From positions 1 to 47,165 of IMG/VR virus record IMGVR_UViG_3300012041_000011: a DNA stretch of 47,165 nucleotides, one strand, 5' to 3'. This document shows positions 4,242 through 31,654 of the stretch, one piece after another (the stretch's first letter is position 1; each line of letters starts with the position of its first letter). This DNA is from a virus. Taxonomy: Duplodnaviria; Caudoviricetes. A program made the translations under genes and the position numbers. The notes under the pieces are model-generated. The model was not told where the DNA came from. It ran no database searches and saw only the letters and a program-made list of their open reading frames with translations.

Positions 4242-4949
4242 TTAGCTCGACAAGTTATTTATAACACTATGCAAAGCGACAATTGCTGCATTAATCTTCG
4301 CTTGGAGCGCCGCTGCATCTGGCTCTTCATCTGGCGGAGGTTCTTCCTGTCCGTCGGTCGGGTCTGTCCCGGTTATGGAATCGAAGTAGATTGTTCCGGA
4401 AGTTCCGCCCTCTCCACCCCAATTTAATCTGATACTATCAATCTGCGTAAAGTTAGCAAATGAAGGAAGCCATGCCGTGAACCCTCCCCAGCTCCCATTA
4501 GAATACAGACGAGCACGTGCTTTATTCGGCTGTCCTGCGGCGTCAAATTCAACGTTCACTACATACCATGTATCCGCAGAAAGTCCGACTGAAATAGGAT
4601 TCATCACACCTCCAGATCCCTCAAGATACACGCCATCTCCTTCTATGAGACCTGGAAAAACAATGGCGAACTTTGTTCCTGAATTCTGTCGAAAAACAAA
4701 CGAAGCATGCAGAGTCGGAATGCTCGTCTTTCGAAAAGCGAAGTACATGGAACCAGCCGCAGTAGGTGTGATAGAACGAGTATAATCGTTATTCGACGCA
4801 GGCGCTACATTGCATTCAAGCGCCTTATCACCTGCGTACTTCACAGCTCCCTGAACACTAATAAGACCAACACTCTTCACCCAGCTATCTTGCCCAGTAA
4901 GATCTCCGTTATTTAGAGAATCGAAGTTTTGTACGTAATTCCAGGACAT
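4242..4949 (-). CDS. Beta-sandwich (lectin/LamG-like) virion protein
   Basis: Probable start MSWNYVQNFD at 4949; GDLTGQDSW...DTWYVVNVEFD...IYFDSI pattern. Confidence 0.65.
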   Translation of the reverse strand: MSWNYVQNFDSLNNGDLTGQDSWVKSVGLISVQGAVKYAGDKALECNVAPASNNDYTRSITPTAAGSMYFAFRKTSIPTLHASFVFRQNSGTKFAIVFPGLIEGDGVYLEGSGGVMNPISVGLSADTWYVVNVEFDAAGQPNKARARLYSNGSWGGFTAWLPSFANFTQIDSIRLNWGGEGGTSGTIYFDSITGTDPTDGQEEPPPDEEPDAAALQAKINAAIVALHSVINNLSS

Positions 4950-18555: not shown

Positions 18556-19491
18556 TTAAGAATCGAACACGTTCTTCATGTTATCTTTCATATTCTTTTC
18601 TATGGACTTTGCGACAATTTCTGCACCACCGTTTTTCCAATCTACAAATCTTCCACATGAGAGATCTAAGACAATCTTGATGTTGCTGTTTCCTCTTCCA
18701 TGACGGGCTTTTTCTACCTTCAAATTAACGTACGATTCATATACGTTATCTTCCCCTTCTGGGACTTTCTTCTTGCGCTTCCGGTCTAGGATAAGAACTG
18801 CCGTCGCCTCTTGGCTGATTGCTGAAGTCCCTTTCATTGAATCAATAGTCGTCTCTGTATCTGTGTCTTGCATTTTCGGCTGAACAGCGAGGAAGACTGG
18901 GGTTTTATTCTTCTTAGCATACAACCGCATGTCCTTGACTGTCTGTTCAACAATCAACCGTTCTTGTGCGTGTGCTGAAGCTGGGTCTGCGTTAGTGAAG
19001 TATCTCAGGTGGTCAAAAAAGAATGCGTCAACGTCAAACTTCTCACGTAAGAAATCCATCACAGGAATACAGTCTGTTCTGAACTTCCAGTCTTCTAAGA
19101 TATTAGGGAACCAAATAGGCAGATCTGTAACTTTAGCGATATGGGCGAGCTTCTTGCTAGGTGCGATCTTCGGGTCAGACAAGAGTTTTGTTTCTGGAGA
19201 CATGTGAGCAAAACGCTGGATCATAATCTCTTCAAGACTCATCTCCCCAGAAAAGAAGGCAACGCTCTTTCCAGAAACGGCTAAGTCTCTTGCGATTTGC
19301 ATCAATAACCAAGTTTTTCCTGTCCCGCCTCTTGCTGTGATCACGACAAAATCATCATCGTTCAAACCTCCGATAGAATCTCCGATCCCAAGAGTTGGCA
19401 GCGGCATCGGGTGTCTGTTTACAGACCTTTCAACGGAATATGTTAGTGCCTCATTGTGACGAAATAACTGTTTCCCGTAGATTTCCTCCAT
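18556..19491 (-). CDS. dnaB: DnaB-like (SF4) replicative helicase, ATPase domain only
   Basis: ARGGTGKT, FFSGEM, FFDHL, KGTSAISQEA, KARHG. Confidence 0.9.
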   Translation of the reverse strand: MEEIYGKQLFRHNEALTYSVERSVNRHPMPLPTLGIGDSIGGLNDDDFVVITARGGTGKTWLLMQIARDLAVSGKSVAFFSGEMSLEEIMIQRFAHMSPETKLLSDPKIAPSKKLAHIAKVTDLPIWFPNILEDWKFRTDCIPVMDFLREKFDVDAFFFDHLRYFTNADPASAHAQERLIVEQTVKDMRLYAKKNKTPVFLAVQPKMQDTDTETTIDSMKGTSAISQEATAVLILDRKRKKKVPEGEDNVYESYVNLKVEKARHGRGNSNIKIVLDLSCGRFVDWKNGGAEIVAKSIEKNMKDNMKNVFDS

Positions 19492-19497
19492 ATGGGC

Positions 19498-19722
19498 CTA
19501 CTTAATAGATTGAATCTCAAAATATATATCTGAAAGTTGCTGTATATGATCTGCTGTGATCCAATTCTTTTCTTCCATGTGTTCAATCCATTTCAAAAGA
19601 GTTTCATGTGTTGACACGTCCTTTTCAAGGATCCAATAACTCCAGTCATCTGGCCCTAAGCGTTTATTACAAAATTCAATAAAGCCGCCGCCATCTCTAC
19701 GAACGAGTATTTCTTCAGACAT
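19498..19722 (-). CDS. Hypothetical protein
   Basis: 74-aa ORF. Confidence 0.6.
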   Translation of the reverse strand: MSEEILVRRDGGGFIEFCNKRLGPDDWSYWILEKDVSTHETLLKWIEHMEEKNWITADHIQQLSDIYFEIQSIK

Positions 19723-19832
19723 AAAAACGCTTATTATCCACCTCCGTGCCTAAACCCGACTTTCGCCGGACACGGAAGGGAATAACAAGCGTTTTAACGT
19801 CACGGTTTAGGCTATGACGGACGAACATCTAA

Positions 19833-19861
19833 ATTGTGCCTCAAGAACTTACAAAAAGCAA
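19833..19861 (-). promoter_or_regulatory. Sigma70-type promoter for the replication genes
   Basis: TTGCTT-N17-CACAAT; same -35 and GG before -10 as the promoters at 24925 and 38516. Confidence 0.6.
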
Positions 19862-19870
19862 GTCCTCATT

Positions 19871-20626
19871 TCACTCGCTTTTCAATCTCTTACAATTGAT
19901 TCGAATCTCATTCTTTCTCGTTGCGGAATCCTTCACCACTTCTTCTCCCCACTTCGATTTTAGATATAAGATATTCTGCTGTTCTCTCTCCTCGTTTCGG
20001 ATATCTTTCACCCCTCCGGCTGTCTTATGTCCGAACTGAGCGAAGATGTAGTCACATCTTACTACTCCTCCATATTCATTTACGTGCTGAAGCGTGAAGT
20101 CGTAATCCTCTTTGAGAGTCATGTTCATATCAAATCTCAAGTGGGTCGGGAGACAGACAAAAAGATCCCCAAGAATGAAGTTCTTCATACACACTAAGTT
20201 TCTGAGAGACATCGGATTCGTAGTCGGGGAGATGCCTCCGAGCTTGAAGTTCAGCTCCTTAAGCCCTGTGTGAATATCTTCAGAGATGTCTTTCAGTTTC
20301 GCTTTTGGCGTCTCCTTCATCACTGCATGGCTCACTCCGAACTTACTTCTTTCGAAATGAGACTTCGTGAAGATGTATGCCCTCTCTTTTACTAAGTCAT
20401 CTGAAATCTGGCAACACGGTTCATTCTCAGAGAAAGATTCATTTAATGCGAAGTTTCTGGCTTCCATCAGTGAGAGGCCTGTAACAATTCTCATCGCTCC
20501 GTTCTTGGCGTAGGCTTCAACATCGTTGTTTTTACCTAAAAGCCATACAGCATCTACTCCATTTAGGAACTTTTCCATCAATAATGGGGCCTCTGGTCTT
20601 TGGTGGGAGATTACATAATAGCGCAT
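19871..20626 (-). CDS. TAGT/GREB1-C/JGT-like DNA glycosyltransferase
   Basis: QISDD, KEDYDFTLQH...GGVVR, AGGVKDIR...LKSKWG motifs; located in the nucleotide-modification cluster. Confidence 0.75.
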   Translation of the reverse strand: MRYYVISHQRPEAPLLMEKFLNGVDAVWLLGKNNDVEAYAKNGAMRIVTGLSLMEARNFALNESFSENEPCCQISDDLVKERAYIFTKSHFERSKFGVSHAVMKETPKAKLKDISEDIHTGLKELNFKLGGISPTTNPMSLRNLVCMKNFILGDLFVCLPTHLRFDMNMTLKEDYDFTLQHVNEYGGVVRCDYIFAQFGHKTAGGVKDIRNEEREQQNILYLKSKWGEEVVKDSATRKNEIRINCKRLKSE

Positions 20627-20759
20627 AAGTCTGTCATTTTAGATCTTGGATAGGAATGAATAACTGTTTCATCGTCCAGGTCACGTCCTGAATCTCTGAA
20701 GGGGTAAAGTCCCGAGTAAGGTTCTAAATCTTCTGTAATGGTCTGATAACCGAACAGCC

Positions 20760-21539
20760 TTATACTGAGGGACGGTAATACCGCCTGCGCCCAGTTCCTT
20801 GTCGGAGAGCGTGAATTTTTCTAACCTCACACAAACAACCTTCAACCACGCGCATCGTCACTTTACCGTACTTCTCATGGCTTATCCCTCTCTTATTCAG
20901 ATCATCTACGATCCATTCGATTTGCTCAACTGATGGCCGCTCTCCGGGGAACATCCTCTTCAGGGTCGGCTTAGCTCCTCCTCCGATGTTGCAATATGTC
21001 TCTGGCAGACCTGCAAAACTCCACCAGTCGCACATCATTTCGTATAAGATGAGACCCTTGATCCTCATCCTTTCGAAACACCCTAGAACTGTCTCTCTTG
21101 CGAGGATGGAAGTTTCAACACCAACCAAAAGTCTCTTCACTTCACCGATCTTCGTAGATCCTTTCGGCATCGCCGGTAGAACAATGAACGCGTCTCCCCA
21201 TTTGATAGAATCTGTTGTCCAATCTTCAGCCTTACCGAACTCTACTAATGGAATTCTGTTTATCTCGGATACGTTATTTATTAGCCTTAGTAAGAATATG
21301 TTGAGAATGGCATTCTCCTTGCTCATTCCTTTTATTCTCGCTTGGAGAGCTTTGGTTGTTTTATCATCCTGACGGAATATGCAGCAGAACTTATATTTCT
21401 GTAGAATTGGATCTTTTGTCCAAGGCTTCGGCTCTCCGGCTTCCTTTTTCTTTCTGATAGATTCTCTCTCCTTGATGAACCATATGAATTCTTCGTAGAC
21501 TTTTGGATCTGGGGTCATAGCTTTCCATTGATCAGCCAC
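20760..21539 (-). CDS. 5-hmdU DNA kinase helical-domain (aGPT-Pplase1-like) protein
   Basis: FIKERESIRKKKEAGEPKPWTKDPILQKYKFCCIFRQDDK and VEGCLCEVRK motifs. Confidence 0.8.
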   Translation of the reverse strand: MADQWKAMTPDPKVYEEFIWFIKERESIRKKKEAGEPKPWTKDPILQKYKFCCIFRQDDKTTKALQARIKGMSKENAILNIFLLRLINNVSEINRIPLVEFGKAEDWTTDSIKWGDAFIVLPAMPKGSTKIGEVKRLLVGVETSILARETVLGCFERMRIKGLILYEMMCDWWSFAGLPETYCNIGGGAKPTLKRMFPGERPSVEQIEWIVDDLNKRGISHEKYGKVTMRVVEGCLCEVRKIHALRQGTGRRRYYRPSV

Positions 21540-21709
21540 TTCTCAAATAGTGGGTGAGGTTCACCGGCTTCCTTCCCCTGCCACGGGAGGTTCAAGAGGT
21601 CGGCTTTGAACTTCCGTCTAATTGCGGAAGAGAATCTCTTATATGCAGACTCGCTCCTCCAGACAGAGTGCACGAGTTCCTTATTTCTGTTCTTGTCTTC
21701 GAAGGTCAT
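21515..21709 (-). CDS. Hypothetical protein
   Basis: 64-aa ORF coupled to both neighbours. Confidence 0.5.
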   Translation of the reverse strand: MTFEDKNRNKELVHSVWRSESAYKRFSSAIRRKFKADLLNLPWQGKEAGEPHPLFEKWLINGKL

Positions 21710-21885
21710 TTGCGTCTCTTCGGCTTCTTGAGAGAGATGTTCAATCTCAACGAGGTGTCATCTACCACATACCGATAGGTAGACTCACGGGTCATCTTCG
21801 CCTTGAGGAATCCTTTCTGAATCCGGTAGATGACTCCAGACCTACTCATCCCCAAAGATTTAATAGCTTGTGCCAGTGTTGCCAT
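21706..21885 (-). CDS. 59-aa excisionase/MerR-like HTH protein
   Basis: MATLAQAIKSLGMSRSGVIYRIQKGFLKAK; ATGA overlap; below the ORF-track cutoff. Confidence 0.65.
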   Translation of the reverse strand: MATLAQAIKSLGMSRSGVIYRIQKGFLKAKMTRESTYRYVVDDTSLRLNISLKKPKRRK

Positions 21886-22474
21886 ATTTCTCCTTTTGTC
21901 TTTTGAGTTTCATTTTTAATCTATATGCTCTCCTAACTGCTCTAACCATATTGTCCCTATGTTTCTTTGTGAACGGTACGCCTCTTTTATGCTCAACATT
22001 ATGGCAAGAACGACAGAGAACTTCAAGATTTTCTACAGCATTATTAGTGTTGTCATGATCTTTGTGATGAACGATAATCTGCCTTCTGCTTCCGCATCGT
22101 TCACAGACACGAGGCTTCTTATAAATATCGAACACAATACGATTATAATTTCTTCCTTTCCAATTTGGATTGTTCTCAAGCCGTTGGCTGTCTCCGAGCT
22201 TTTTTAGATGTATCAAGAATTTAGATCTAAATTCTGGGTTCTTCCATACTTTAATCATTGACAACTTGCTCCTTTCAGAAGCCTCTTCTTTATGTTTCGG
22301 ATCTGAGCGATACCATTTCTTTATGCTCCTTGAAAGCCTTTTCTTGACAGCAGGATTTTTATATGTCTCTCTATTTGAATCCCCTATCTTCTTCCTGGTT
22401 TCTTTTGAGAGCTTCCATCCACGCTTATTGACCATCTGCTCTTCACTCCATTTATATCCCTTCGGTACTCCCAT
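21860..22474 (-). CDS. NUMOD3-HNH homing endonuclease
   Basis: SKETRKKIG, ENNPNWKG, CERC, VHHKDHDNTNNAVENLEVLCRSCH. Confidence 0.9.
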   Translation of the reverse strand: MGVPKGYKWSEEQMVNKRGWKLSKETRKKIGDSNRETYKNPAVKKRLSRSIKKWYRSDPKHKEEASERSKLSMIKVWKNPEFRSKFLIHLKKLGDSQRLENNPNWKGRNYNRIVFDIYKKPRVCERCGSRRQIIVHHKDHDNTNNAVENLEVLCRSCHNVEHKRGVPFTKKHRDNMVRAVRRAYRLKMKLKRQKEKYGNTGTSY

Positions 22475-22868
22475 ATTTCTCAACAGACATCTTCTTCATA
22501 AGTATAGGGGAAACGAAAGAATTAGGGTGAGCGGAGCTATGGTAATCACGCACGTAAAAGACTTTGCTCACCCCGGATTCACTCATTGCTTTTAGACAAG
22601 AAGTGCAAGGACGCTCAAGACTAACGACCGTAGACCCTTTGAGTGCAACACCATTCTTCGCAGCGGTTGCGACCATATCTACTTCTGCGTGAATTGCGCT
22701 TACACAATGATTTTCTTCGATGATACATTCCTTCTCTCCGCAGTGATGATTGTATCCCATCACTTCGTCTGGGTTGTCGTCATCTGTGATGGCAATCGCA
22801 GCACACTGCGCCCGTGGGCAATCAGATTCCTGAGAGGTGAGAACGAGCTTCTCAATGATTCGTTGCAT
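22452..22868 (-). CDS. dCMP deaminase-like protein
   Basis: HAE...PCTSC zinc motifs, MGYN. Confidence 0.9.
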   Translation of the reverse strand: MQRIIEKLVLTSQESDCPRAQCAAIAITDDDNPDEVMGYNHHCGEKECIIEENHCVSAIHAEVDMVATAAKNGVALKGSTVVSLERPCTSCLKAMSESGVSKVFYVRDYHSSAHPNSFVSPILMKKMSVEKYGSTEGI

Positions 22869-22869
22869 A

Positions 22870-23757
22870 TTATTTATATGATACCTTACGAACACCAATG
22901 AGATAGTCCATATAGGTTTTAATCGGCTCTGGAAATCTATTCTGTGGTAAGGAATTGGGATCTGCCTGTTCTGTAGTGATCCAGAAAGAAATCTTGTTGA
23001 ACATTTCCTTTAAGTGATCCCTTGCTTCATTGAGAGACATTCCATTCCATTCTGGATGAATCAGGTCAGAGTATTCCTCAGTTCCATTCTTTTGTGCGTC
23101 TAAAACCGCTCTGAGCTGATCTTCCCGTTCATTATAGGAGTGCATACTTCCTGCTTGATGGATGTACCAGCCTGTTGGGATCTTCAAATCAGAAGCAAGG
23201 GCCTTCCCGAGAATCCCAAACTGTGAGACATCATTCGGCAGACCCCAAAGGATGTCATTCGATCTCATTGTAGAGATCATATTCAATCTACCGTCTCGGA
23301 TGAGGAATTGCAAATTGAGTGTGCAAGGCCTATCTAGCGAGTTGGTGTTGATCGCATCTGAGACAGAATAGATCGGGATTACTGCTTGTCGCGTGTCCGG
23401 ATCTTTTTCAAGCTGGTCTCTGATTTGAAAGAGACTCGCACCGATTCTCACCGGATATGCCCCGTCCCAGGTGTTAGTGATCGGATTGAGAAAATCCTTC
23501 ATGTTCTTATTCACATGTAGGATGATATCTGTTGGGACTTTCCCGCAGATATTTAGAAGCCCCTCGAGCAGCGCGAAGCGTGTCGGCAGCTTTCGGCTCT
23601 TTTGGAGAGGAGTCGGCTGAGAGTAATCTTCAAGTTTGAACTGATAGGCCAGCATCTCACGTATAGGTTTCCCTCGTGGAGCACAGTGAGATCCGTTCGT
23701 GAGAACGTCTTTGATGATCTCTGGGTAGGCAGACGTGATGTCATGATATGTTCTCAT
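22870..23757 (-). CDS. Thymidylate-synthase-fold enzyme, dCMP hydroxymethylase-like
   Basis: DTRQAV, PCT, MRSNDILWGLPND, HQAGSMHSY; Asp at the position of ThyA Asn177. Confidence 0.85.
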   Translation of the reverse strand: MRTYHDITSAYPEIIKDVLTNGSHCAPRGKPIREMLAYQFKLEDYSQPTPLQKSRKLPTRFALLEGLLNICGKVPTDIILHVNKNMKDFLNPITNTWDGAYPVRIGASLFQIRDQLEKDPDTRQAVIPIYSVSDAINTNSLDRPCTLNLQFLIRDGRLNMISTMRSNDILWGLPNDVSQFGILGKALASDLKIPTGWYIHQAGSMHSYNEREDQLRAVLDAQKNGTEEYSDLIHPEWNGMSLNEARDHLKEMFNKISFWITTEQADPNSLPQNRFPEPIKTYMDYLIGVRKVSYK

Positions 23758-24221
23758 AGAAGTGACCAATGGTTAGAGAACGCTCGAACCTTGAAAACTG
23801 TCAACTTCGGATAAGCAGCCGCAATACGCTTCGCTTCTTTCAGGAAAAGGTTCTGAACCTTCACGGCTTCATCTGGGGTGATATATGTTTCCTTCTCTTC
23901 CACACATCGGGCTTTGAGCTTATCTGCGTAGTCCCACAAAACGAGCAAGATAGCTCCTCGATCTTCCATCTTTTTTAGATAAGAAGCATACTCCTCATCT
24001 GTCCAATCTGAGGCATGCTTTTTGACTTTTGCGTAAACCTTCTCACCAAGTATGAATCTATCGAGCACGACGTTCTCTTTTTCAAAAGCTCCTCCGAAAT
24101 ATTCTAAAGGATGTTTGTCAGGTTTTGAATAATGAATCCATTCTGCCCCGAACTTCTCTGCGAGCTTCTTAGATAATTGTGACTTGCCCGTTTTGTCACA
24201 TCCCTCAACTGAAATCATCAT
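23754..24221 (-). CDS. dNMP (thymidylate-type) kinase
   Basis: EGCDKTGKS P-loop, VLDRF. Confidence 0.85.
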   Translation of the reverse strand: MMISVEGCDKTGKSQLSKKLAEKFGAEWIHYSKPDKHPLEYFGGAFEKENVVLDRFILGEKVYAKVKKHASDWTDEEYASYLKKMEDRGAILLVLWDYADKLKARCVEEKETYITPDEAVKVQNLFLKEAKRIAAAYPKLTVFKVRAFSNHWSLL

Positions 24222-24571
24222 AGCTTTTGTGCAACGCGATTTAGATTTATATCGTTCTTCCTCACATATTCATTGAAGAAGGAATCAGCGTCTAACCCAG
24301 AAATAAGAGCAAGAGCAACAACGATATGTTGGATGTCGCTCAGTTCTTCATGGAGTTTGTCATAGTCGATCTTCTTCCCAGCTGATGTCGCTCTCCAAAA
24401 TTTCCTGCTCGGAATTTCACGAAGAAACTCTACAGCTTCTTCAACGAGAAGCTGCCAATATGTTTGAAGATATTTGGATCTATCTTCTTCTGATGAGATT
24501 GATTCAATTGGAATGAAGTTTGCGGCAAGCTTCTTTTGTCTGTCGAACAGTTCCTGTAATCTGTCGCTCAT
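24218..24571 (-). CDS. All-alpha dUTPase/dCTPase (MazG-like)
   Basis: EEAVE...KFW...EELSDI...KNDIN. Confidence 0.85.
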   Translation of the reverse strand: MSDRLQELFDRQKKLAANFIPIESISSEEDRSKYLQTYWQLLVEEAVEFLREIPSRKFWRATSAGKKIDYDKLHEELSDIQHIVVALALISGLDADSFFNEYVRKNDINLNRVAQKL

Positions 24572-24768
24572 ACTTCACAGCACTCACACGGCCCGACAGG
24601 AAGTTCAGCGGCGGTGATTATTTGTGCGACTAAATTATTACATGCTTCGCACCAAATACGTAGAGTATCTGGATTATGCATTCCAACAGCAATATTATCA
24701 GGCCTTCCTTTTTTCAAACATTTCTTGCAGTGAAAGTACACAGCAATGTCTGGTTCTTTTTTGTTCAT
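24568..24768 (-). CDS. Small Zn-binding protein
   Basis: CKKC, CEAC, CECC; start placed at MNKKE because ATG 24810 abuts the -10 box. Confidence 0.55.
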   Translation of the reverse strand: MNKKEPDIAVYFHCKKCLKKGRPDNIAVGMHNPDTLRIWCEACNNLVAQIITAAELPVGPCECCEV

Positions 24769-24810
24769 ATCATTGAAAGAAGAATTATTCTGCGTTCGAC
24801 CTTTGGACAT

Positions 24811-24839
24811 ATCTTACCTGAAAGTCGGGTAACGGACAA
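24811..24839 (-). promoter_or_regulatory. Leftward promoter for the modification operon
   Basis: TTGTCC-N17-TAAGAT with GG before -10. Confidence 0.55.
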
Positions 24840-24924
24840 GTTCACAAATAAGAGCTAAAAACCCCGTGTTCACTCGTCCCGTCGAGGGGCGGGAAATGGG
24901 TAAAAACCTCAGTGAATAGGGGGG

Positions 24925-24953
24925 TTGCTTTTTCAAAGAAAGTAGGGTATAGT
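24925..24953 (+). promoter_or_regulatory. Rightward early promoter
   Basis: TTGCTT-N17-TATAGT at the strand-divergence point. Confidence 0.75.
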
Positions 24954-25055
24954 GTTCAGGTGAAGGTGAGGTTGATCGGCCACGGCTGATCTCTCCCCGC
25001 CCGTCGTTCTCAAGAGGTCTCAATACACTAACACACGTTTTCACGTGTAAACCCT

Positions 25056-25295
25056 ATGGAAACTTTTTCTAAAGACACTGCCGAACTCTTCCGCTTTATC
25101 CGCTCAGCCTACGAAAAAGCACATGCAGGATACATGGCAGGAAACATGACCCAAGATGAATTCTTCAAGGTGAAGAAAGTCTTCGCGTCCGCTCAACAGC
25201 ATCTCATGCCTTCAAAGGGGAAGGCGATGCGTGAGATTGAAAAAGATCTCGCTAAGAAATACGGAGACTCATACTCAACCGGAAAACGGGTATGA
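25056..25295 (+). CDS. Hypothetical early protein
   Basis: First ORF after the promoter. Confidence 0.7.
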   Translation: METFSKDTAELFRFIRSAYEKAHAGYMAGNMTQDEFFKVKKVFASAQQHLMPSKGKAMREIEKDLAKKYGDSYSTGKRV

Positions 25296-28493: not shown

Positions 28494-28988
28494 ATGAAGG
28501 AGGAGTGGAAAGAAATTAAAGGGCATGAAGGAAGATATGAAATAAGCTCTTTCGGAAGAATAAGATCTGTATCAAGGATGTGCCATAATGGTAACGGGAT
28601 GAGGAAAGTGAAGGGTAAGATATTAACACTGTACACAAATTGCGCGTATCCCTCATATGGGTGGCGCATGTCCCCGCACCGCCTTGTTGTGGAACACTTC
28701 ATTGGGAAAATCACAAAAGGATTAGAAGTGAACCACAAAGATGGTAACAAACATAACAATCGTGTTACTAATTTGGAAATTGTTTCAAAAAGTGAAAACG
28801 AAAAGCATAAGTATCATACATTAGGATATAAGATACACAATTTGAAGCTTACTAAAGAAATCGCTAGTGAAATCCGAAAGAAATATAAAACAAAGAAGTA
28901 TTCTTACCCAGATCTCGCGAAGGAATATGGAGTCTCTCATATGACAATAGGCAGGATAATACGCCGCGCGCAGATTTCATACTTATAA
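28494..28988 (+). CDS. NUMOD4-HNH homing endonuclease
   Basis: [23 protein letters not shown]; HRLV; [17 protein letters not shown]. Confidence 0.92.
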
Positions 28989-30519: not shown

Positions 30520-30659
30520 TGAAGAAGTCGAAGAAGATGAACTGTTCCTCGTGTGGAAATCCCTTCCAGCGCGTTACCAGCGGCCGCGTGAACTGCAAGA
30601 GCTGTCAGCCTTTGCAGAAAAAGCTCTCACGAATGGTAATTAAACGAAGAAAAGATTGA
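30519..30659 (+). CDS. 46-aa basic Zn-ribbon peptide
   Basis: CSSCGNPF...CKSC; TAATG overlap with the upstream gene. Confidence 0.6.
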   Translation: MKKSKKMNCSSCGNPFQRVTSGRVNCKSCQPLQKKLSRMVIKRRKD

Positions 30660-30661
30660 TT

Positions 30662-31277
30662 CCTTCCCTCCCTCTGCCTCGTCGTGCCTTCAGTGTTGTG
30701 GGCGTGATCTGGCGGAGAGAGGGGTGGAGAAATCCATCCTAATTCGTTGTTGAATCGATGAATTAAGCGATATGCCGAGCTTCGGTTCGGCGGTCGCCCG
30801 CGCGAGACATCGCAACCAAGACGAAAGTCGATAGGAGTTGCCTCTCGCGGGCGGGTAAAACCGCAGGTAAATAGCGCAGCGTGGGCGGATTGTCGGATCG
30901 CGTCCGAATACGAGTCGCCCTCGGTCCTGTATACGCGTTGCGCTCTCGCCTCTGCCGTTTGTGGGGTAGCACGGAGAAAAACCGTGCACCTGTAATCGAA
31001 AGATTACCGCGAACTTTGGCTCACACAAACGGCGAAGGCGGGTAAAACCGCAAAGCGATCTCGATGATCGGTGTATTACCCAGATTCTAGAAATGGGTGG
31101 GAGTAAAAAACCCGTCAACAAGTGTTCATCGAGCGTCGCTATGGGTACACACAATGAACAACACACAAGCGGTGCGAACGGATGTAATGACCGTTCGGTA
31201 AATGGCAAATCTCTGCTATCAGCACAGCCGATCTGTTGAGACGTGTGTATCCGTAGCGTCGCGCTCCAATCGCTTAA
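30662..31277 (+). ncRNA. Large, highly structured non-coding RNA of unassigned class
   Basis: Nested helices closed by TTAAGCGAT(30763)/ATCGCTTAA(31269); UUCG and GAAA tetraloops; G-U pairs favour the + strand. Confidence 0.7.
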
Positions 31278-31282
31278 GAAAT

Positions 31283-31654
31283 ATGGCATTACGAATCAAC
31301 AAACAGAAAAATAATAAAAGCGGATTTACGGGAGTTTGGTATCGAAAAGACCGCAGAGCGTGGGTCGCGACGATAGAAAGCAAGCGCTACCACCTAAAAG
31401 TCTCTAAGCAGTTTCATTCACTTGAAGAAGCGAACCGTTGGAGGGTGGAGTATTTGAGCGGAAGACCTGACCTCGTGGCAGACCATAGACCGAATTGTTC
31501 CAAGTGTAAGAAAAGAAAAGATGTGAAGGATTTTAATGTAGATAGATCCCGTGCTCGTGGCGTAGAGACAATCTGTAGAGAATGTTCTCGTAAAAAACAA
31601 AAAGCACGATACGCTAAACACTTAAAATCCCTCCCCCTCTCATCGCTTAAATGA
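31283..31654 (+). CDS. AP2-domain plus Zn-finger DNA-binding protein (homing-endonuclease-derived)
   Basis: NKSGFTGVWY...WVATI...FHSLEEA; CSKC...F...CREC; no obvious catalytic domain. Confidence 0.75.
   Translation: MALRINKQKNNKSGFTGVWYRKDRRAWVATIESKRYHLKVSKQFHSLEEANRWRVEYLSGRPDLVADHRPNCSKCKKRKDVKDFNVDRSRARGVETICRECSRKKQKARYAKHLKSLPLSSLK

Follow-up and report, generated by a model that had tools for sequence, protein, structure and literature searches.

A probable large structured non-coding RNA, so far a singleton, in the early operon of an uncultured freshwater phage

Large phage RNAs and the structured stretch at 30660-31290

ROOL and GOLLD are described as phage RNAs that measure between 580 and over 800 nt, lie near tRNA islands and assemble into RNA-only cages via kissing loops and A-minor contacts (PMC12286853, PMC5737381), with an average length of 581 nt given for ROOL (PMC5737381). 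Here, we analyzed a stretch of similar scale in an uncultured freshwater phage, namely positions 30660-31290 of the virus record IMGVR_UViG_3300012041_000011. The analyzed window covers the whole record (47,165 bp) including direct terminal repeats, and the genome was taken as complete. The stretch sits within the rightward early operon on the + strand (~25.2 to 35.9 kb) and probably represents a large structured non-coding RNA (ncRNA), well supported as a singleton and not yet a class. The RNA belongs to no catalogued family; in kind, it stands with the large ornate phage RNAs.

The likeness to ROOL and GOLLD covers the size class, the phage-encoded, multi-domain and highly paired character and the lack of a known protein partner. 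In addition, the slot of the RNA holds tRNA genes in relatives (loci L063/L128 and L114), and unpaired palindromic loops provide candidate kissing sites, by which oligomerization might be imagined. However, neither of the two Rfam models matched even at E ≤ 10, the phage has no tRNA genes and carries the element in its early operon rather than in a tRNA island, and no relatives were found here, hence there are no conserved pseudoknots and no covariation to compare.

The folding strength of the stretch is extreme and strand-dependent. The 631 nt of the + strand reached a minimum free energy (MFE) of -269 kcal/mol at a shuffle mean of -211.9 (z = -10.16; 0/20 shuffles equalled it), and the - strand of the same 631 nt reached -241.5 kcal/mol (z = -5.76). 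When the genome was scanned in 469 segments of 300 nt on both strands with GC-corrected energies, the three most extreme + strand segments (n = 469) started at 30701, 30801 and 30601 with deviations of -3.75, -3.36 and -3.25 standard deviations (SD), and the corresponding - strand values were -0.25, -1.7 and -0.28 SD. All seven sub-domains (7/7) fold better on the + strand, with z-values of -5.6, -5.1, -3.3, -1.9, approximately -7.1, -1.4 and -5.5 versus -3.6, -2.3, -2.4, -0.65, -6.9, -0.6 and -4.3 on the - strand. The MFE fold consists of 206 pairs, and pair probabilities of 0.9-1.0 were obtained for most of the listed helices. Four of the 13 hairpin loops are tetraloops, and three of these four read cUUCGg or cGAAAg on the + strand and CGAA or UUUC on the - strand, in line with the strand preference of tetraloops that had been noticed in a preliminary description made from the sequence. 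The GC content amounts to 0.52-0.57 in the structured stretch and to ~0.39-0.45 in the flanking kilobases. The same description had called the region the largest gene-free stretch of the genome; according to the list of open reading frames (ORFs), this has to be corrected, as the divergent control region at 24572-25230 (659 nt) exceeds 30660-31282 (623 nt).

In a cmscan run with all 4227 models of Rfam 15, no match at the gathering score was found over the whole 47-kb window, and between 30400 and 31500 just six junk matches to miRNA and antisense models appeared (E 0.14-8.4), far below the cut-offs. With no strong match, the RNA is not a catalogued family. The covariance models of ROOL, GOLLD, OLE, raiA and HEARO gave no match in the stretch, and ARAGORN reported 0 tRNA and 0 tmRNA in the 47-kb genome. 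Identities as tmRNA or RNase P RNA were rejected, as no Rfam model and no ARAGORN prediction matched. A group I intron was rejected likewise (no match at E ≤ 10; flanking ORFs complete and unrelated), as was a group II intron (the models did not match at E ≤ 10, and none of the ORFs inside the element could be assigned to a family), which agrees with the missing hallmarks of all these RNAs in the preliminary description.

An antisense protein gene or a self-splicing intron of unrecognised type was considered with regard to the antisense frame of 199 codons that stays open on the - strand (30690-31289) and to the homing-endonuclease-like genes close by (HNH/NUMOD4 at 28494-28988; AP2/Zn-ribbon gene at 31283-31654). 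Neither the 199-aa frame nor three smaller frames in the stretch belong to a Pfam or PHROG family. Searched against 5.8 billion proteins, the 199-aa frame retrieved only itself (1 hit from 71 candidates), and 0/3 candidates matched among shorter proteins, thus the frame is not conserved. Having no family and no relative and running opposite to the operon, the antisense gene was rejected. The intron was excluded because the upstream 46-aa ORF has its stop codon, the downstream AP2-like protein starts in the same way as its relative P0012, and the 58-aa gene that follows is complete. Taken together with the group I/II result, this leaves the antisense gene or intron extremely improbable.

A role at the level of DNA was also considered: the stretch could be a single-strand signal for initiation or replication, or else a small mobile element of the non-autonomous type with the 9-bp terminal inverted repeat TTAAGCGAT/ATCGCTTAA at its borders. 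The fold is also extreme with DNA energy parameters (z = -9.1), the GC content lies above that of the flanks, and a third copy of the repeat is located 365 bp downstream by a flank-like pyrimidine run, resembling an empty-site junction. Including its complement, ATCGCTTAA occurs three times in the genome where 0.36 occurrences are expected (the complement at 30763, then 31269 and 31642). However, the element has a single genomic copy and no counterpart in the searches, it is built of local domains and not of one long terminal palindrome, its UUCG/GNRA loops and many G-U pairs (24/206) favour RNA, and the replication genes reside in another module (DnaB-like helicase at 18556-19491). A DNA-level or mobile role is therefore considered highly improbable. 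An identity as MITE-like element was rejected despite the inverted repeat, as the single genomic copy had no counterpart in the phage, viral, metagenome-locus and genome searches.

The third ATCGCTTAA copy (31642-31650, + strand) marks the extreme end of the AP2-like ORF, directly before the next ATG, and is preceded by TCCCTCCCCCTCT, a pyrimidine run resembling the 5' flank of the RNA. As a whole, 31628-31650 reads as a 5'-flank-like pyrimidine run (compare 30665-30677) fused to the 3' end of the element (31269-31277), like an empty site. Furthermore, the last seven residues of the AP2-like protein overhang its relative P0011. By its sequence, the region of the third copy may be the scar of the arrival of either the RNA or the AP2-like gene.

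Architecture and the repeated hairpin

All helices listed in the preliminary description are found in the sequence at their given positions, and all but one are part of the MFE fold. These comprise AGCGCAGCGU/GCGUUGCGCU, UGCCGUUUGUG/CACAAACGGCG and UCGAUGA/UCAUCGA as well as GAACGG/CCGUUC and the long helix, which was recovered with 16 bp (31137-52/31243-58). All features given below lie on the + strand. The element begins with a long imperfect hairpin (30660-30729), whose 5' arm is rich in pyrimidines and whose 3' arm is rich in purines, at a mean pair probability of 0.90-0.97. It starts 1 nt past the stop of the 46-aa Zn-ribbon ORF and has z-values of -5.6 (+) and -3.6 (-). A 10-bp hairpin, UAAUUCGUUG/CGAUGAAUUA, follows at 30740-30765 (mean probability 0.94). 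Of the three hairpins proposed between 30662 and 30764, these two are the strong ones.

The 5' strand of the closing helix, UUAAGCGAU (30763-30771), has its partner AUCGCUUAA at 31269-31277, and 5 nt separate the end of this partner from the start codon of the AP2-like gene. The two strands are complementary as originally proposed, but the helix is the one that is missing from the MFE fold, in which GCGAU of 30763-71 pairs locally with 30793-97. Forcing the closing helix resulted in -266.9 kcal/mol versus the MFE of -269.0 kcal/mol, i.e., a cost of 2.1 kcal/mol. AAGCGAU is present a second time at 31053-59, where it takes up this 3' strand in the MFE fold, so that the closing helix is only one of two near-isoenergetic options.

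Within these ends, an 8-bp hairpin capped by a cUUCGg tetraloop (30773-30792) is seen in the MFE fold and in the pair probabilities. Domain A (30798-30850) is formed by the closing helix CCGCG.GAG/CUC.CGCGG, an inner GCAAC/GUUGC helix and a GAC-GAAA-GUC hairpin at probabilities of 0.86-0.93, and its z-value of -3.3 was computed jointly with the hairpin of the first repeat copy, GGCGGGUAAAACCGCA (30850-30865). Domain B (30873-30944) has a 10-bp closing helix (probability 0.90), inner helices and an unpaired GUAUAC, and is the second-weakest domain (z = -1.9). In domain C (30945-31036), an 11-bp helix with probabilities of 0.98-1.00 closes a three-way junction whose arms are a GCACGG/CCGUGC hairpin and a GUAAUC-GAAA-GAUUAC hairpin (z = -7.05 for the domain). 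The second repeat copy, the identical 16-mer GGCGGGUAAAACCGCA, follows at 31037-31052. The next segment, 31053-31132, holds AAGCGAU as the alternative partner of 31269-75 together with domain D1, at probabilities of 0.4-0.8. Domain D1 is the least supported part (z = -1.4) and has an 11-nt hairpin loop with the palindrome UUCUAGAA. Finally, the 16-bp helix of domain D2 (31133-31262), which includes G-U pairs, closes a branched arm (GAACGG/CCGUUC and AUGGCA/UGCUAU) at a probability of 1.00 (z = -5.5). Among the loops of the fold, no intramolecular loop-loop complement of at least 6 nt was found; the two unpaired palindromes, the 8-nt UUCUAGAA at 31085-92 and GUAUAC at 30929-34, could act as kissing sites by analogy with the cage-forming RNAs.

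The two repeat copies are identical over 16/16 nt, and each is located directly 3' of a closed domain. By estimate, ~5e-5 exact 16-nt repeat pairs are expected in 631 nt. The GGCGGGUAAAACCGCA sequence is able to fold into a hairpin of 4 bp closed by a GUAAAA hexaloop. In copy 2, however, the 5' half is used by the MFE fold to extend domain C (AGGCGGG with CUCGCCU), with a probability of 0.10 for the hairpin versus 0.83 for the extension. The core sequence GGGTAAAA has only three sites in the genome, all on the + strand and all in non-coding structured RNA regions. The third one, at 24898, belongs to a variant copy of the motif, GGCGGGAAAUGGGUAAAA (24888-24905), within a three-way-junction element of 62 nt in the operon leader (24862-24923, + strand; z = -4.4, 0/200 shuffles as good), after which a U-rich run follows. 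The pattern GGCGGGN{0,8}TAAAA has three matches in the genome versus 0.12 expected, and 0/100 shuffles reached three. The leader element itself is possibly a regulated terminator or a factor-binding site.

This third copy brings in the main rival of a free RNA, i.e., a cis-acting structured intercistronic element of the early mRNA that could mediate processive antitermination, guide or block RNase cleavage, or control how the AP2-like gene is translated. In this case, a phage regulator would bind the repeated hairpins, as at nut or put sites. The motif in the leader, within a three-way junction and with a U-run after it, fits such a role, as do the lack of an own promoter or terminator, the 3' helix ending 5 nt ahead of the next start codon and the 70-nt 5' hairpin starting directly past a stop codon. 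The likeness to lambda nut (boxB) and HK022 put lies in a short GC-stemmed hairpin with a G-started, A-rich loop that recurs on the early transcript, with the leader copy beside a terminator-like U-run. However, two of the copies form part of a closed structure of 520 nt that lies ~6 kb downstream in the operon with no terminator nearby, and no boxA-like element, N-like protein or factor turned up, whereby boxA and N-like proteins were not searched for. The nut and put signals measure tens of nt, and four closed domains of ~520 nt in total far exceed the known signals for antitermination or processing, such as nut, put and RNase III sites. Moreover, no U-rich terminator follows any domain in 30660-31290, and the start context of the AP2-like gene resembles that of all other genes of the phage, being A/T-rich and free of a Shine-Dalgarno motif. 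A cis-acting element was hence rated as rather unlikely, and behind the reading of a discrete RNA.

The hairpin bears a likeness to an element of ribosomal RNA (rRNA). The 12-mer of the hairpin occurs in 89/401 Patescibacteria genomes, whereby a reversed control also matches many. Eleven of the 12 inspected sites are ordinary genomic sequence and one is located in the large subunit (LSU) rRNA (Rfam 1748 bits); across these 12 sites from the 401 genomes, no link to a conserved host ncRNA emerged. The Patescibacteria LSU rRNA site aligns gap-free with nt 668-757 of the E. coli 23S rRNA, in whose numbering the hairpin comprises nt 709-722 with the loop at 713-718, i.e., the tip of helix 34 (H34). 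GCGG-GUAAAA-CCGC is identical over 14/14 nt to this H34 tip, the comparison being with the LSU rRNA of a single Patescibacteria genome. Among 41 Bacteroidota genomes, 16 yielded a total of 17 instances of the corresponding rRNA hairpin, with covarying stems, and 2/17 carry GGGUAAAACC. The likeness consists of the identity of the hairpin plus GAAG 5' of copy 2, whereas the 3' flanks are unlike, so that only the hairpin is alike. As judged from this comparison, the repeated element is a natural rRNA-type hairpin, and its likeness would be due to mimicry or to convergence on a stable loop.

In the ribosome, nt 711-716 of H34 are described as contacting S15 in bridge B4 (PMC4538834). An undescribed, ribosome-aimed class of large phage RNA can be imagined from this, in which two H34 tips on a scaffold that self-associates through palindromic kissing loops would capture free 30S or S15 early in infection and the leader copy would couple this to early gene control; we give such a ribosome-directed decoy little credence.

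Homologue searches and the equivalent slot in relatives

Relatives of the RNA were searched in several collections. A blastn search in distant mode with 751 nt gave no match among 50,697 phage records. The exact 16-mer scan of IMG/VR returned 20 loci, which is about the chance expectation, mostly in unrelated contexts, and none extends past 31 nt. No RNA match was found in 13 loci around Erf relatives, and merely 14-18-nt matches were obtained for the TerL relatives (seven, of which five whole records were searched). The family of the neighbouring 117-aa protein provided 80 metagenome loci, one being the window itself, and 43 IMG/VR loci, adding up to 122 foreign loci; among these, neither blastn (E ≤ 0.1) nor nhmmer (E ≤ 10) gave a match, and the collection of homologs proposed at the outset thus remained empty. 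From genome contigs of the same family, six loci were taken, and searching four genomes with the RNA led merely to 17-25-nt matches. With a covariance model consisting of domain C and hairpin 2 (repeat copy 2), no match better than E ~0.04 was obtained in 99 loci, in 151 genomes from one class of the Saccharibacteria lineage and in five related phage records. A BLAST search of 401 Bacteroidota genomes gave a single 22-nt match, and three partial loci found via the AP2-like neighbour did not contain the RNA. The stretch is present in three DNA sequencing runs, one of which is probably its source, whereas the other two, from sediment or freshwater, contain short pieces of identical sequence and no variants. 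A match to a Bacteroides-type promoter pattern was seen once in the genome and nowhere near the element.

Among phages with the 117-aa family, the gene neighbourhood is mosaic, and most of them have no gap of at least 200 nt after the 117-aa gene. In a 44-kb related phage (L063, on the same contig as L128), the 117-aa-family gene is followed at 4347-4874 by tRNA-Asn, a structured stretch of ~380 nt and tRNA-His. The 3' part of this stretch (4566-4770) gave a sub-threshold manA match of 26.9 bits (E 3.5e-5; cut-off 55.2) and contains the GCGGGUAAA hairpin start; from its sequence, it is possibly a divergent manA-like RNA that occurs beyond the cyanophages. In L114, the equivalent slot gave a tRNA-like Rfam match. 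In two other loci, the spacers are structured as well but unrelated, and Rfam gave no match at the gathering score (L060:966-1393 and L104:5726-6065), with z-values of -5.9 and -6.1 for the gaps alone (15 shuffles) and -4.8 and -4.9 for slightly wider spans (100 shuffles). In relatives, RNA genes thus seem to accumulate in the slot behind the 117-aa gene, with the RNA described here as a singleton.

The manA RNA (RF01745), a riboswitch candidate of cyanophages, is linked to the element by the manA-like RNA between two tRNA genes at the equivalent slot in L063. It differs in size and architecture, and its model had no match in this genome: a dedicated search returned 0 matches at E ≤ 10. An identity as manA RNA was rejected as the covariance model did not match.

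Being a singleton with no relative in the collections searched, the stretch could also be a fortuitous GC-rich self-complementary spacer or the decaying remnant of a gene or insertion, and have no function. The mosaic neighbourhood in related phages would fit this explanation, and so would the unrelated structured gaps of L060 and L104 (z of about -5). However, the stretch is the top + strand folding outlier of the genome, its stable tetraloops are strand-specific, it combines an exact internal repeat of 16 nt with a third motif copy on the same transcript strand, and identical copies occur in two further sediment and freshwater runs. We consider a lack of function quite improbable. From the initial proposal of a new large phage ncRNA, the non-coding nature, the strand-specific structure, the scale of ROOL and GOLLD and the missing Rfam signature were upheld, whereas the status of a class was not, as no relatives were found.

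Genomic setting and proposed role

The early operon encodes ParB-like, HNH/NUMOD4, Erf and exonuclease-like genes and is also rich in small genes of unknown function. On the - strand, the phage encodes the large terminase, an M23-peptidase tail protein, the DnaB-like helicase, a thymidylate-synthase-like enzyme and a glucosyltransferase. The 46-aa Zn-ribbon ORF lies upstream of the structured stretch, with the last base of its stop codon at 30659. The downstream gene (31283-31654, + strand) encodes a protein of 123 aa with an AP2-like N-terminal part and a Zn-ribbon, which resembles the parts that bind DNA in HNH and endonuclease VII proteins of phages. Only two full-length relatives of this protein were found, P0011 and P0012, the latter sharing the start Met; both are known only from Logan contigs, as is the closest relative of the 117-aa protein (P0003, 69%). 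The gene after the AP2-like gene encodes a whole hydrophobic peptide of 58 aa.

The phage is isolated, its best TerL relatives being 45-49% identical. No Shine-Dalgarno motif precedes the start codons, and the upstream sequences are A/T-rich (58 starts inspected). The sole cultured-phage relative of the 117-aa protein comes from Cellulophaga phage phi19:1, and contigs of metagenome-assembled genomes with the 117-aa family carry the labels Saccharibacteria, Bacteroidales, Dehalococcoidia and Clostridiales. Our guess is a Bacteroidota-like host, as hinted by the absent Shine-Dalgarno motifs and the Cellulophaga-phage relative. A copy of the 117-aa gene with 54% identity is also included in a metagenome contig of 1.36 Mb (L047), where it probably belongs to a prophage in a small genome.

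Apart from the early operon, a structured gap lies between the helicase-like and glucosyltransferase-like genes (19492-19870, 379 nt). It has a - strand z-value of -4.3 and contains on that strand a long, nearly perfect hairpin with a GAAA loop. Next to it, the - strand cluster at 19871-24571 includes thymidylate-synthase-like, kinase-like, pyrophosphohydrolase-like and glucosyl-HMC-glucosyltransferase-like proteins, whose sequence resemblances suggest DNA base modification by the phage.

For the role of the element, our preferred though tentative reading is a discrete ncRNA of ~520-620 nt that would arise by read-through of the early operon and act in trans as a scaffold or decoy. It is put forward because of the analogy to ROOL and GOLLD and because relatives carry RNA genes in the same slot. 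The RNA would be transcribed together with the early genes, as no own promoter or terminator was seen, and its four closed domains (A-D) would be strung on one closing helix. The GUAAAA hairpins may all be recognized by the same partner, through a protein or an RNA-RNA contact, and the copy in the leader would couple that partner to the control of the early operon. The palindromic loops would permit self-pairing, possibly into a homo-oligomer as in other large phage RNAs.

Several observations weigh against a discrete trans-acting RNA. As the searches for relatives came back empty, neither covariation nor selection can be traced outside this single genome, and no RNA run was among the runs listed as holding the stretch. 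The element shows no own promoter or terminator, and the sigma-70 scan had no match there. Since the DNA parameters give close to the same contrast between the strands (-9.1 on the + strand versus -6.3 on the - strand), energies alone cannot tell RNA from single-stranded DNA. Within the fold, domains B and D1 are weak, and pairings compete both at repeat copy 2 and at the closing helix. The palindromes are mildly unexpected, with about one 6-mer and 0.2 8-mers estimated by chance, and the motif copy in the operon leader also fits a cis-acting role.

Intricately folded bacterial and phage RNAs of more than 500 nt are rare, the known ones being ribosomal RNA, group II introns, GOLLD, ROOL and OLE, and each known large RNA opened new biochemistry, the latest being RNA-only cages. 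The candidate described here is as large and as strongly folded. If relatives were found and their helices covaried, it would add a new class; otherwise, it would join the many structured orphans known from uncultured phages. The repeated rRNA-like hairpin provides a testable handle on the partner and the function of this RNA.

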